64,000 bases of DNA from Candidatus Atabeyarchaeum deiterrae (GTDB lineage: Archaea; Asgardarchaeota; Atabeyarchaeia; Atabeyarchaeales; Atabeyarchaeaceae). Below are positions 3,906 to 7,285 of the stretch, in pieces. The notes beneath the pieces are model-generated. The model did no database searches. It saw nothing but the letters and a program-made list of their open reading frames with translations, and was not told the DNA's origin. Position 1 is the stretch's first letter. Every line of letters begins with the position of its first letter. The stretch spans positions 1,664,001-1,728,000 of the forward strand of contig CP147780.1 in assembly GCA_037310415.1 (NCBI GenBank). The letters run 5' to 3'. The position numbers were made by a program, and so were the translations under genes.

Positions 3906-4517
3906 TTGATCCACAAAGGGAAGAGGATGACTGGTGGGGCACCTCACTCTCCCTACTCCATCCACGGTCTTGGGAAACTGTTTGCAGACAGGATAAAGGG
4001 TTCGGTTGAAGACTGGAATGAACTACGCGTTCTCGATGTCGGAACTGGTTCAGCTGCTAATGCCATCTTTCTAGCTGAATTGGTAGGTATAAGAGGTAAG
4101 GTATACTCGATCGACCCCTCAAAAGAGGTACTGCAAAACGCGGGCAAAACGATCAAAGCAAAGGGACTGTCAAAGCGCATAAAACTGTCAGAAGGAGAGG
4201 CTGAAAATATACCTCTAGAGAGTTCGTTCTTTGATGTCGTGGTCACGCTCATGGCACTTCATCACCTCAAAAGCCTAGGAAAAGCAATCAAGGAATTCGG
4301 TCGTGTGCTCGAGGAAAAAGGAGTATTTGTCGCAGTTGAGTGGACTACCAAAGCATCAGAATTCATTCCTCACCCCAAGACCGACTTCATCTCGCCGGAG
4401 CTAGCAAAGAAACTCTTGGTTGAAAATGGCTTCGATATAACTGACTTCGAAGAGTCAGGCTACTACTTCTTCATCAAAGCCCAAAAAAGAAAAAACGAAG
4501 AAGCGGAGGTTCGCTAG
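3906..4517 (+). CDS. Class I SAM-dependent methyltransferase (UbiE-like)
   Basis: VLDVGTGSA, AENIPL, FDVV, LHH, RVL..G. Confidence 0.85.
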   Translation: MIHKGKRMTGGAPHSPYSIHGLGKLFADRIKGSVEDWNELRVLDVGTGSAANAIFLAELVGIRGKVYSIDPSKEVLQNAGKTIKAKGLSKRIKLSEGEAENIPLESSFFDVVVTLMALHHLKSLGKAIKEFGRVLEEKGVFVAVEWTTKASEFIPHPKTDFISPELAKKLLVENGFDITDFEESGYYFFIKAQKRKNEEAEVR

Positions 4518-5003
4518 CTAATCAACTGAACTCCCGCAACTGGGACAGAACTTGGCGCCTGGCGGCAATGGATACCTGCAGTAAGCACAATAGACGGGGA
4601 CCGACGCTTTGGCAACTCCTTTGGGCTCACCGATCATAACCTGACCCGTGTTCTTGTCAAATCCAGCATTTATTCTTCCCTCAGCCCTCAAATCAACAAT
4701 AGCTGCCCTAAGCTCTTTCTCACTCATCTCTAACTCTTCAGCTAGCTTGCTGAGTTCAACCTTCTCCCCATTGTGGTCGCTAAGAGTTCCTTGAACAGTT
4801 CTAGAAGTGGCCCTCCTGTTGTAGAAGACGCTTATCGAGATAAGAATCAAGACTCCTCCAGCAAAAGCAATCCAAGGAGTTCCATCCACTATCCTGAAGT
4901 ATGCGAGGCTTCCCCAAGCTACGAAAAGCAGACCTAACCCGATTAAGAAATACGGTGGCTCCTCGTACCTCATTCTGTGCCGGTGATGGTTATGTTCACT
5001 CAT
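4518..5003 (-). CDS. Membrane protein: 2 TM + PCI-like winged helix + C-terminal Zn ribbon
   Basis: Two hydrophobic helices; VELSKLAEELEMSEKELRAAIVDLRAEGRINAGFDKNTGQV; CAYC...CPSCG. ATG 5003 follows GGTGA (track start 5015). Confidence 0.7.
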   Translation of the reverse strand: MSEHNHHRHRMRYEEPPYFLIGLGLLFVAWGSLAYFRIVDGTPWIAFAGGVLILISISVFYNRRATSRTVQGTLSDHNGEKVELSKLAEELEMSEKELRAAIVDLRAEGRINAGFDKNTGQVMIGEPKGVAKASVPVYCAYCRYPLPPGAKFCPSCGSSVD

Positions 5004-5098
5004 GACTAAGGTCACCTTTTGCAGACCGAGAAAGCGATTATTCTATCTTAAATGTTTCTCCAAAGCCTGCAACACGTGTACTATTTCTTGCTTTTCAT

Positions 5099-5425
5099 TC
5101 ATTCCACCGAACTTCCACAGCTCGGACAGAATCGTGCGCCGGGAGGTAGCTGGTAGTCACAGGAAGCACAAGCTGTTTTCGTTTCTGAGTCAACTGCGGC
5201 TCTTCTAGGCTCGCCGATCACCAGTTCGCCCGTACTACCGTCAAACGAAGTTTCGATTACACTCCTGCCTCTAAGCTTGATGATAGTCGCCCTCAGTTCT
5301 CCTTCATCAATGCCCAACTCATTAGCGAGATCACTAAGCTGGATTCTTTCCCCCGCATGTTCAAGAAGTGCTACAAGCACCTCGCTTTCAATGTCTCTTC
5401 CGCTATCGCAACAGCATGGACCCAT
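5099..5425 (-). CDS. Soluble paralog: PCI-like winged helix + Zn ribbon
   Basis: IQLSDLANELGIDEGELRATIIKLRGRSVIETSFDGSTGELVIGEP; CASC...CPSCG. Clearly similar to 4518..5003. Confidence 0.7.
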   Translation of the reverse strand: MGPCCCDSGRDIESEVLVALLEHAGERIQLSDLANELGIDEGELRATIIKLRGRSVIETSFDGSTGELVIGEPRRAAVDSETKTACASCDYQLPPGARFCPSCGSSVE

Positions 5426-5602
5426 GAATTAAATCACCATTCTGAAACAATTCCTCTGACAAACAGATTGTCGTGTCTTAATAAATATCTTTGTTCAAGA
5501 CAGAAATAGCAACTTACGTTGCATGACTGCGTCTGACCAATCAGAAAAAGAGTGTAGTTTCCATTTGGAAACTCTCCTGATCAACACAATGCGCCTAACA
5601 TT

Positions 5603-6067
5603 TTAGGGACCTTTCAGTGCCATCATGATTCCGAAAATGACCAACAGGATACCAGCAATCATGTCAATGTATAGACCGATTCCCACGGATACAAAGGCAA
5701 TCGGAAAACCAAAAATAGTTGCTGTTGCTCCAAGCAATTGAACTGTGCTCAGGTAAACGATCATGCTTCCTGCGAACACAAGAAGTCCCATAACTAATAC
5801 CAAGACTGACAGCATCTTTGCCCTGCCTGCCATAGACGGAACAATTGCAAGACCTGAGAACACTATTGCGAGTATGGCTCCTATTGGGATAACGTACACG
5901 AAAAGGAACGCTCCGGCAAGACTGGCCAACTGAAAACTGCTGATTGGCCAAATGAGAAAGAGTAAGAAAATCGTTAGGTAGGGTAAGAACATCCCGACGA
6001 AGCTAATGATGCCAAACAAGAGGTTAAGGATCGCCCAGACAGGTATCCCGCCTTTCTTTGAACTCAT
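5603..6067 (-). CDS. Hypothetical multi-pass membrane protein
   Basis: About four hydrophobic segments in 154 aa. Confidence 0.7.
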   Translation of the reverse strand: MSSKKGGIPVWAILNLLFGIISFVGMFLPYLTIFLLFLIWPISSFQLASLAGAFLFVYVIPIGAILAIVFSGLAIVPSMAGRAKMLSVLVLVMGLLVFAGSMIVYLSTVQLLGATATIFGFPIAFVSVGIGLYIDMIAGILLVIFGIMMALKGP

Positions 6068-6355
6068 TTATTATTGATCTCTCCATCTACCTTTTCCATA
6101 CTGTGTTGTCTATTGGCTTCTCCAATATTAATAGGTATTCCAAGAGTTTCCCGATTGGGCTGAACATGCAAGAAATGAAACGAAGGGCCGCTGATCGCCA
6201 TCGAAAGAATGCTTGCCGCGAATTTGATATGTAAATCCTACTGCGGTTTTCTTTCTGCGATCTATCTCCTCCTCTCACTATAGTTTCATTTTCTCGTGCC
6301 ATCAGAATGGTGTTAATAGGGAGTTAGACACCAATTATGTAGAATGTGAGCAACA

Positions 6356-7285
6356 ATGGTTCAGTCCATGAAGGAAATTACTCACTCAGACTATCTCGAG
6401 TTCATTGGAGATCACAGTGAAGTAGCCATAGGGGACACGGGAGTGAAGCTGAGTCACGAATGGTGTATAGAAGCTTACACTCCACCTGATAATTATCACC
6501 CTGAGAAGGAAACTGTATGGAGTTTCCCAAGTAGAGGTAATTGGGCTACTCACCAAGGCGACTACAGGGGGAACTGGTCCCCCTACGTTCCGAGAAACCT
6601 CATACTAAAATACACAAAACAGGGAGACTGGGTTCTGGATCAAATGGTAGGCAGCGGGACAACACTCGTTGAGTGCAAGCTGCTGGGCAGGAATGCTATC
6701 GGCGTAGATGTGAATCCAAACGCGATAATGGTTACAAGAGACCGCCTAAACTTCAGATACGCGCCACCTAACGTAGACGAAGCTGAGAGCACAATAAGGA
6801 CTTACGTGGGAGATGCAAGAAACTTAAATGAGCTATCTTCAGAGAGCATAGACTTGGTAGCTACACATCCACCATATGCCCGCATTATCTCATACACGAA
6901 AAAGACCACCGGGGTCGTTGAGGGAGACCTGTCGCGGCTACCTCTTAACAATTACTTGACAGAGATGCGAAAAGTTGCGGGGGAATCTCTGCGCGTCCTC
7001 AAGCCAGACAAGTATTGTGCGATACTGATGGGCGATACGAGAAAGCAACGGCACTATGTTCCGATAGCCTTCAAGATCATGCAGATCTTCCTGGAGGCTG
7101 GTTTTATTCTTAAAGAAGACATAATCAAGCGGCAGTGGAAAATGAAAGGCACAAGAGAAAAATGGAGAGGAAGATACCAAGACTTCTACCTAATTGCACA
7201 TGAACATATTTTCGTTTTCAGAAAACCTTTGGACAGCAAGGAATTCTCCAAACATAAGAATAGCAGTTCGACCATAATATTCTAA
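6356..7285 (+). CDS. N4/N6 DNA methyltransferase family protein (alpha-type motif order; TRM11-like fold)
   Basis: YRGNWSPYVPRNLI, VLDQMVGSGTT (motif I) preceding ATHPPY (motif IV), HEHIFVFRKP. Confidence 0.85.
   Translation: MVQSMKEITHSDYLEFIGDHSEVAIGDTGVKLSHEWCIEAYTPPDNYHPEKETVWSFPSRGNWATHQGDYRGNWSPYVPRNLILKYTKQGDWVLDQMVGSGTTLVECKLLGRNAIGVDVNPNAIMVTRDRLNFRYAPPNVDEAESTIRTYVGDARNLNELSSESIDLVATHPPYARIISYTKKTTGVVEGDLSRLPLNNYLTEMRKVAGESLRVLKPDKYCAILMGDTRKQRHYVPIAFKIMQIFLEAGFILKEDIIKRQWKMKGTREKWRGRYQDFYLIAHEHIFVFRKPLDSKEFSKHKNSSSTIIF

Follow-up and report, generated by a model that had tools for sequence, protein, structure and literature searches.

Tandem winged-helix and zinc-ribbon paralogues in an Atabeyarchaeia genome, one of them with a predicted membrane hairpin and relatives across Asgard archaea

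Two neighbouring minus-strand genes of Candidatus Atabeyarchaeum deiterrae encode paralogous proteins that each consist of a winged helix (wH) and a four-Cys zinc ribbon, and the longer of the two, which additionally carries a predicted two-helix membrane hairpin, belongs by its sequence to an unnamed family of roughly 150–200-amino-acid (aa) proteins that is widespread in Asgard archaea. The genes were found in a window of 64,000 nucleotides (the whole stretch of DNA analysed here, positions 1,664,001 to 1,728,000 of contig CP147780.1) of a complete Atabeyarchaeia (Asgard) chromosome that consists of a single contig of 2,756,679 bases; the nearest named homologue comes from 'Promethearchaeati archaeon SRVP18_Atabeyarchaeia-1'. 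Of all known organisms, Asgard archaea are the most closely related to eukaryotes, and the way in which they organise proteins at membranes is an open question. Eukaryotes use wHs of the PCI type to build the proteasome lid, the COP9 signalosome, eIF3 and the UFM1 ligase bound to the endoplasmic reticulum (ER). The anchored protein is small, conserved and apparently Asgard-restricted, its cytoplasmic domain comes closest to this wH type, and its unannotated family has a plausible role; a partner, once identified, would tell whether winged helices of this sort served in membrane docking before eukaryotes arose. Membrane-tethered wH proteins are known as a kind, while the hairpin-wH-ribbon family itself is unstudied and Asgard-wide: literature searches that combined Asgard with PCI domain, Asgard with winged helix, zinc ribbon or transmembrane, and membrane-anchored PCI-like wHs with archaea returned no description of it.

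Three short minus-strand genes stand in a row in the window, namely a gene for a protein with four transmembrane (TM) helices (5603-6067), the soluble paralogue (5099-5425) and the anchored paralogue (4518-5003). BLASTP aligned the latter two with 46/89 identities (52%; 95.1 bits, E 4e-31), a similarity far beyond chance, and both have the wH and the ribbon, while the His/Arg-rich tail and the two hydrophobic helices occur in the longer protein only. A sequence-only reading of this DNA had described duplicated genes, one of them soluble and one with two TM helices, and BLASTP, hydropathy and AlphaFold2 (AF2) models bear this out. The motifs it quoted as shared are real and lie in the wH (helix-strand-helix-helix-strand-strand in the models) and in the CxxC...CxxC ribbon, and its N-terminal difference was likewise recovered, the soluble protein starting with MGPCCCD and having no hydrophobic segment, as against the tail and two hydrophobic segments of the anchored one. 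Both genes look functional, since the fold core and the zinc ligands are conserved in all copies. The coordinates of the features are collected in the table.

Table. Coordinates of the two paralogous genes, their parts and the upstream neighbour in the window (residue numbers of the anchored protein refer to the 161-aa form unless stated otherwise)
Feature	Positions	Strand	Remarks
Gene, anchored paralogue	4518..5003	-	161 aa from ATG 5003; mechanical open reading frame to GTG 5015 (165 aa); database call starts at 4973
GGTGA box, possible ribosome-binding site	5012..5016	-	8 nt upstream of ATG 5003; weak evidence
His/Arg-rich N-terminal tail, residues 1-14	4962..5003	-	translation; His/Arg/Tyr-rich stretch before RYEEPPYF, conserved in the close clade
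Predicted TM helix 1, residues 18-35	4899..4952	-	AF2 helix 22-39 (165-aa numbering) and hydropathy
Predicted TM helix 2, residues 44-63, continuous with wH helix 1	4815..4874	-	AF2 helix 48-80 (165-aa numbering) and hydropathy
Winged helix, residues 64-124	4632..4814	-	AF2 topology; HTH_11 and GntR match weakly; Pfam PCI reaches 18 bits, short of its cut-off
C-terminal four-Cys zinc ribbon, residues 137-161	4521..4595	-	Pfam Zn_Ribbon_1, 29.6 bits vs cut-off 25
Gene, soluble paralogue	5099..5425	-	108 aa from ATG, isoelectric point (pI) 4.5
GGTGA box	5434..5438	-	8 nt upstream of ATG 5425; motif not enriched in the window
Cys-Cys-Cys cluster, residues 4-6	5408..5416	-	alignment: where the sibling's TM helix 2 ends
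Winged helix, residues 12-70	5216..5392	-	AF2; fold searches
Zinc ribbon, residues 84-108	5102..5176	-	Pfam Zn_Ribbon_1, 29.2 bits
Upstream 4-TM gene	5603..6067	-	154 aa, no family; neighbour in this genome only

The anchored protein is laid out as a two-helix membrane hairpin, a wH, a floppy 10-residue linker and the four-Cys ribbon. Its hydropathy profile has two segments only (windows starting at residues 18-21 and 38-45, mean > 1.6), and these coincide with the helices of the AF2 model. The models (mean predicted local distance difference test scores of 74.3 and 73.3, from alignments of 18 and 60 sequences) gave both proteins a canonical wH (helix, strand, helix, helix, two-strand wing), followed by a low-confidence linker and the ribbon. 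Because basic residues flank the hairpin on both sides and its loop has only 8 residues, we infer that both ends face the cytoplasm, so that the N-terminal tail, the wH and the ribbon would all be cytoplasmic and the wH, attached to the end of TM helix 2, would lie immediately beneath the membrane. The likely start of the anchored gene is ATG 5003; GTG 5015 lies itself inside the GGTGA box. The spacing from this box to the ATG is identical for the anchored and the soluble gene; GGTGA-N6-9-ATG is not enriched in the window (10 found vs 8.1 expected, with 28/100 shuffles reaching 10), and the box is therefore weak evidence for the start. Stronger evidence comes from the protein level, as the His-rich tail that follows ATG 5003 is conserved in the homologues P0006-8, P0010, P0019 and P0169 as well as in the copy of the sister genome G002, while the database gene call (P0005, 151 aa) takes the Met before RYEE as its start, further into the gene, and would thereby omit the tail.

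The frame of the soluble gene is open for 109 codons only, that is, for one codon before its ATG, and the best 19-residue Kyte-Doolittle mean of its product is 0.76, so no hydrophobic segment is present. In its AF2 model a disordered 11-residue tail precedes the wH. The Cys-Cys-Cys cluster in this tail occurs in four of six soluble copies (window, G002, P0021 and P0022) and is absent from those of Atabeyarchaeia-1 (P0002) and P0077. The soluble protein is also more acidic, with a pI of 4.51 vs 6.78 for the cytoplasmic part of its sibling. No relic of a hairpin was detected upstream of the soluble gene (best tblastn E 0.12), nor any DNA similarity between the 5' regions of the two genes. A search of the source genome for DHHC yielded nothing over the cut-off, which leaves lipid anchoring by a DHHC enzyme without support here.

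The extent of the family was assessed with a profile built from 18 close and Baldrarchaeia homologues (A1) and with an alignment of 60 diverse members (A2). The anchored protein matched the family profile over its full length (E 1.8e-73, positions 2-155 of 155), while its soluble copy aligned to positions 44-155 only. The A1 profile found matches at E ≤ 1e-5 in 272/400 genomes of the Asgard phylum, a count that is an upper bound given that ribbon-only matches can reach about 3e-8 in a Thermoplasmatota control; among the A1 matches listed, all 150 rows (E ≤ 1.5e-16) include the wH, and most span from the first TM helix to the ribbon. The 201 Thermoplasmatota genomes of the control contained no full-length match: 12 of them had matches, and the rows listed cover the ribbon alone in 12/13 cases and the TM hairpin in 0/13. 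Look-alike small clusters from Thermoplasmatota and bacteria were also seen in the Atlas; they are leads only, as the A1 profile gave nothing but ribbons in the 201 Thermoplasmatota. An exhaustive profile search of 1.84 billion representatives returned 1821 matches at E ≤ 0.001 and 102 at E ≤ 1e-10, in which true members are mixed with unrelated multi-ribbon proteins. Of 8000 candidates scored in a word-seeded search, 647 proteins had E ≤ 1e-8; among the 120 matches listed, every row that names an organism is Asgard (16/16; Promethearchaeota, Hod-, Hermod- and Odinarchaeota), and the source databases call the members 'zinc ribbon domain-containing' or 'hypothetical'. A search for DNA loci with A1 was keyed on the ribbon motif, and true relatives made up 2 of its 13 loci.

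Across A2, only four Cys and one Gly are invariant (60/60), and Zn_Ribbon_1 (PF13240) is the sole Pfam family whose cut-off (25 bits) is reached by either protein of the window. The constant core of the family is formed by hairpin and wH. Linkers from the wH to the ribbon have lengths of 2 to 51 residues, and four members of 121-124 aa (P0042, P0044, P0063 and P0092) stop right after the wing, appearing ribbon-less unless their gene calls are truncated. The wing is net negative in 32/60 members, and the wH has a median charge of +1; soluble copies, at -7 to -12, have the most acidic wHs of the family. A HAAS domain N-terminal to the hairpin-wH-ribbon module was recognised in the rare relative P0029 (617 aa; 37.6 bits vs cut-off 27) and, below the cut-off, in P0030 (269 aa; 25.6 bits). 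In both of these metagenome proteins a His-rich stretch also precedes the module, and P0029 runs on into a long extracytoplasmic repeat region.

The history of the pair was reconstructed from a maximum-likelihood tree of 25 rows, of which 6 were translated from the window and the loci and 19 were database proteins; P0004, P0007, P0011, P0016, P0042, P0051 and P0092 were left out as near-duplicates or fragments. All five soluble rows form one clade (support 100/100, stem 0.8) that is nested within a 98/99 clade of the His-rich anchored type. The soluble form thus has a single origin in a duplicate that lost the hairpin and then changed fast, towards strong acidity. It is restricted to Atabeyarchaeia and close relatives. 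The sister genome G002 has kept the same tandem, flanked by a gene for an S-adenosylmethionine (SAM)-dependent methyltransferase and one for a DNA methylase. In the complete genome of Atabeyarchaeia-1 (G003) the soluble gene stands alone at that site, and the sole other family member is a distant subfamily copy elsewhere, adjoining a Ras-like GTPase. A soluble copy without a close anchored sibling argues against obligate pairing of the tandem siblings.

The sequence-only reading had called the wH PCI-like. This is right insofar as PCI is the best-matching Pfam wH family: it is the commonest in A2 (22/60 members at E ≤ 0.1, best 1.7e-7), and two Baldrarchaeia orthologues exceed its cut-off (26.9 and 25.6 bits vs 22). 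The two paralogues themselves stay below it, the anchored one with 18.0 bits and the soluble one without any match, and only the Baldrarchaeia orthologues pass. The match of the anchored protein to PF01399 covers profile positions 38-82 of 84 only, and the model is unspecific, as it matched 6/14 control genomes, E. coli and B. subtilis included. The defining part of a PCI domain is its helical-repeat half; this subdomain is absent in the AF2 models, in which its place is taken by the TM hairpin in the anchored protein and by the disordered 11-residue tail in the soluble one. Membership in neighbouring families was not indicated either. DDRGK (PF09756) gave no match for the proteins of the window and matched 5/60 members at E ≤ 0.1 (best 0.0051), and TFE/TFIIE-alpha (PF02002) reached 13.4 bits vs a cut-off of 22.9 for the soluble copy and matched 15/60 members at E ≤ 0.1 (best 2.8e-4). 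Weak matches below the cut-off were further obtained in A2 for HTH_11 (9 members), HTH_24 (8) and Rrf2 (7).

Comparisons with known structures gave a similar picture. The best wH match among the sequences of the PDB was eIF3e (E 0.0013), and DDRGK1 was found at E 0.0045. With VIA-align, UFL1 scored Z 8.9 (root-mean-square deviation 2.2, 64 residues aligned), DDRGK1 8.3-8.7 and CSN3 8.2, followed within the PCI group by a mouse 'PCI domain' (8.0), a proteasome-lid subunit (7.9) and eIF3a (7.8), while BirA (Z 9.1), PurR (8.3) and NiaR (8.2) were tied with this group (7.8-8.9). Foldseek placed CSN2 at ranks 2-5 (E 2e-3 to 3.7e-3), NolR and MarR heading or filling its lists, and found nothing at E ≤ 0.001 with the full anchored model. 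Owing to the scores below the cut-off, the unspecific model, the fold ties with BirA, PurR and NiaR and the missing helical-repeat half, we regard the wH as PCI/DDRGK-flavoured and not as a PCI domain.

The same wH-ribbon module recurs in a larger protein of the source genome, which the scan of this genome for PCI had picked up. It is a 646-aa protein encoded outside the window (locus L072, 31-1968 on the plus strand, at about 1,583,886-1,585,823 of the chromosome G000:C1), in which HEAT/Arm-like repeats are combined with a PCI-like wH, a zinc ribbon and a RING finger. In an alignment with the family profile, its wH and ribbon were covered jointly, as a single unit (hhalign probability 96.6%, E 5.9e-10), and orthologues are present in all three Atabeyarchaeia genomes, with 664-700 aa in the two sisters. 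The C-terminus of this protein was matched in 120/400 Asgard genomes but in only 3/135 genomes of family f20, where the anchored family reaches 118/135. The module is common to both proteins, yet their co-occurrence does not support a fixed partnership.

The function that we tentatively favour, at a little under an even chance, is that of a membrane-tethered docking module with a soluble competitor or partner. Through its wH the anchored protein would keep a partner from the cytoplasm at the membrane, by protein binding of the PCI/DDRGK1 type and not in the manner of a classical DNA-binding repressor. The acidic soluble copy would bind the same partner off the membrane as a competitor or shuttle, or would bind an anchored relative. 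A docking role is favoured because the hairpin accompanies the wH across the family, the charge of the wH is neutral to acidic, and the wHs closest to it bind proteins. Several observations weigh against it. The fold matches do not separate protein-binding from DNA-binding types, BirA, PurR, NiaR and MarR scoring like the PCI type, and two conserved Arg on helix 3, together with the weak HTH_11, HTH_24, Rrf2 and TFIIE_alpha matches, keep nucleic-acid binding possible. The HAAS fusion of P0029 is a further such point, HAAS being proposed, in the part of the source available (PMC11237479), to signal to winged helix-turn-helix transcription factors. Finally, no conserved companion emerged from 20 family-gene neighbourhoods in different genomes (118 neighbouring open reading frames (ORFs) scanned), and in four metatranscriptome runs no contig covers the two wH genes, although contigs cannot show absence of expression.

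Some of these points would be expected of a membrane-tethered nucleic-acid-binding regulator, whose hairpin holds the factor until a signal or a cut and whose soluble copy is the free version, a reading that we consider rather unlikely. Besides the TFIIE_alpha, HTH_11, HTH_24 and Rrf2 matches in A2, it is favoured by archaeal TFE (6kf4_G), which aligns over both wH and ribbon (E 0.021), by MarR, NolR and BirA among the top fold matches and by the labels 'biotin operon repressor' or 'MarR' that some members bear at JGI, and the HAAS fusion points the same way under the HAAS-PadR model, as far as the accessible text of PMC11237479 sets it out. All of the supporting Pfam scores, however, are below their cut-offs. 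The wing is mostly negative and the wH as a whole near neutral, and in the soluble copies it is strongly acidic; nearly all family members retain the hairpin, and the neighbourhoods showed neither a protease nor a target gene or operator. The sequence-only reading had itself proposed a minimal PCI-like membrane heteromer, held together by a shared sheet of wH wings. The frequency of PCI matches, the two Baldrarchaeia orthologues above the cut-off, the wHs of eIF3e, CSN2, CSN3 and the proteasome lid among the best matches and the tandem retained in G002 are in line with such an assembly, and oligomerisation has been proposed for PCI-like wHs of archaeal ESCRT-linked proteins (Makarova et al. 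2024, PMC10936438, in the portion available). It is distinctly unlikely all the same, given the absent helical-repeat half and the unspecific PCI model; moreover, Atabeyarchaeia-1 combines a soluble copy with only a distant anchored subfamily member elsewhere, and most Asgard genomes have the anchored form alone.

The anchored protein might alternatively be a membrane receptor for wH-bearing ligase scaffolds, the HEAT-wH-ribbon-RING protein here and UFL1-like multi-wH proteins in other Asgard, in the way that DDRGK1 docks UFL1 at the ER. The wH-ribbon pair shared with the 646-aa protein and its conservation in the three Atabeyarchaeia genomes speak for such a role, as do the DDRGK1 and UFL1 wHs among the top-tier structural matches (Z 8.3-8.9). 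It is improbable in view of the differing phyletic patterns (the f20 counts above), and a common module indicates common descent, not binding. For UFL1 and Ufm1 the source genome has no match, and for DDRGK none over the cut-off, so a UFM1 link has no support here, and in Asgard genomes at large the best matches of the DDRGK model are multi-wH ORFs of about 800 aa, not the studied family, mostly in f20 and with none in the family of the window's genome (f1). Because the DDRGK model finds these ORFs and not the family studied here, they are probably the Asgard 'UFL1 and DDRGK1' reported by Picchianti et al. (PMC10183829, available in part), whose supplement, in its accessible text, holds no Asgard entries; Ufm1 has also been reported in Asgard (bioRxiv 10.1101/2024.07.03.601958, likewise available in part).

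The docking reading can be extended to a bolder proposal, which we hold to be very improbable: the anchored protein would be an Asgard-wide receptor that pairs wH to wH with ubiquitin-like ligase scaffolds bearing this domain and so brings them to the membrane, with the HEAT-wH-ribbon-RING protein as the scaffold in this genome and UFL1-like multi-wH proteins in Loki-type lineages, and the soluble copy would be a regulated decoy, its Cys cluster standing where the hairpin formerly left the membrane and being possibly lipid- or metal-held. If true, this would be a prokaryotic counterpart of DDRGK1-UFL1 docking at the eukaryotic ER. Least probable of all is metal or redox sensing by the His-rich tail and the Cys cluster, which would lie side by side at the membrane face near wH helix 1. 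Both the close clade and the HAAS-fused relatives have conserved the tail, and four of the six soluble copies the Cys cluster, with Cys-Cys in the relic copy; other subfamilies, however, have plain Arg/Lys/Tyr tails, Atabeyarchaeia-1 and P0077 lack the cluster, and no metal transporter or chaperone gene is found nearby.

Regarding the surroundings of the genes, the synteny with the upstream 4-TM gene that the sequence-only reading had suggested checking is not conserved: in both G002 and G003 no such gene separates the DNA methylase from the soluble gene. A homologue exists elsewhere in G003, where no wH gene adjoins it, and none was found in G002 with this query. The source genome itself holds an old duplicated block, in which window positions 5339-6085 correspond to 1504-2261 of locus L003 at 68-76% DNA identity; the block includes a second 4-TM gene (46% protein identity) and the first approximately 28 codons of the soluble gene, after which the sequence is degenerate. 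Within this lineage, and in no other, the 4-TM and soluble genes have stood side by side for some time. On the minus strand of L003, which lies outside the window, the segment 453-2243 carries the 4-TM duplicate (158 aa), the relic of the soluble gene and then a 191-aa protein with an N-terminal zinc ribbon. A single 208-nt contig from one wetland metatranscriptome library matched window positions 5878-6085 exactly (the 5' part of the 4-TM gene), for which DNA carry-over is possible.

Downstream, a SAM-dependent methyltransferase gene (Methyltransf_11/25/31; 3906-4517, plus strand) is convergent with the anchored gene, the stop codons of the two abutting, an arrangement that is kept in G002 and absent in Atabeyarchaeia-1. 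At the other end, a DNA methylase gene (N6_N4_Mtase, E 5.8e-25; 6356-7285, plus strand) is divergent from the gene block and occupies the same site in both sister genomes, which indicates a stable chromosomal gene and not a part of a mobile element. Elsewhere in Asgard, a Ras/Arf-type small GTPase was encoded within three genes of a family gene at 4/20 loci (L070 6568-7071, L071 5280-5810, L061 7518-8063 and L069 3862-4359) and directly adjacent to it in two; we rate this proximity as chance in GTPase-rich genomes. Proteins with a PF0610-like wH and a rubredoxin-type ribbon were found near a family gene at 2/20 loci (L053 7727-8008 and L060 5174-5530).

Among known systems, the wH half of PCI proteins (eIF3e, CSN2/CSN3 and the Rpn subunits of the proteasome lid) resembles the studied wH in topology and in the sequence pattern through helix 3 and the wing, whereas the studied proteins lack helical repeats, have a ribbon behind the wH and, in the anchored form, a TM hairpin before it, and belong to no known multi-subunit complex. 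DDRGK1/UFBP1 (PDB 8ohd, 8c0d and 8b9x), with the wH scores given above, is similarly a small membrane-anchored protein with a PCI-like wH toward the cytoplasm. Its anchor is of another type than a two-helix hairpin, and the anchored protein has a ribbon in place of the partial wH with which DDRGK1 completes UFL1. Archaeal TFE/TFIIE-alpha shares the order of wH and then ribbon, and 6kf4_G was matched across both domains, but the studied protein is membrane-anchored, much shorter and acidic or neutral in its wH, and the scores are below the cut-off. The 646-aa protein of the same genome has a homologous wH-ribbon unit and differs in being soluble and in its helical repeats and RING finger, which the proteins of the window lack. 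PCI-like wHs have further been described in archaeal ESCRT-linked kinases, and 'HTH/PCI' in Asgard ESCRT proteins, in the available portion of Makarova et al. 2024 (PMC10936438), where the hairpin-wH-ribbon family is not mentioned. The HAAS-PadR dyads (mSystems 2024, PMC11237479, as far as the accessible text describes them) also pair a membrane protein with a small soluble wH protein, and P0029 carries a HAAS domain; the proteins of the window, in contrast, have no HAAS, their wH is not PadR-like, and here a wH would be present in both partners.

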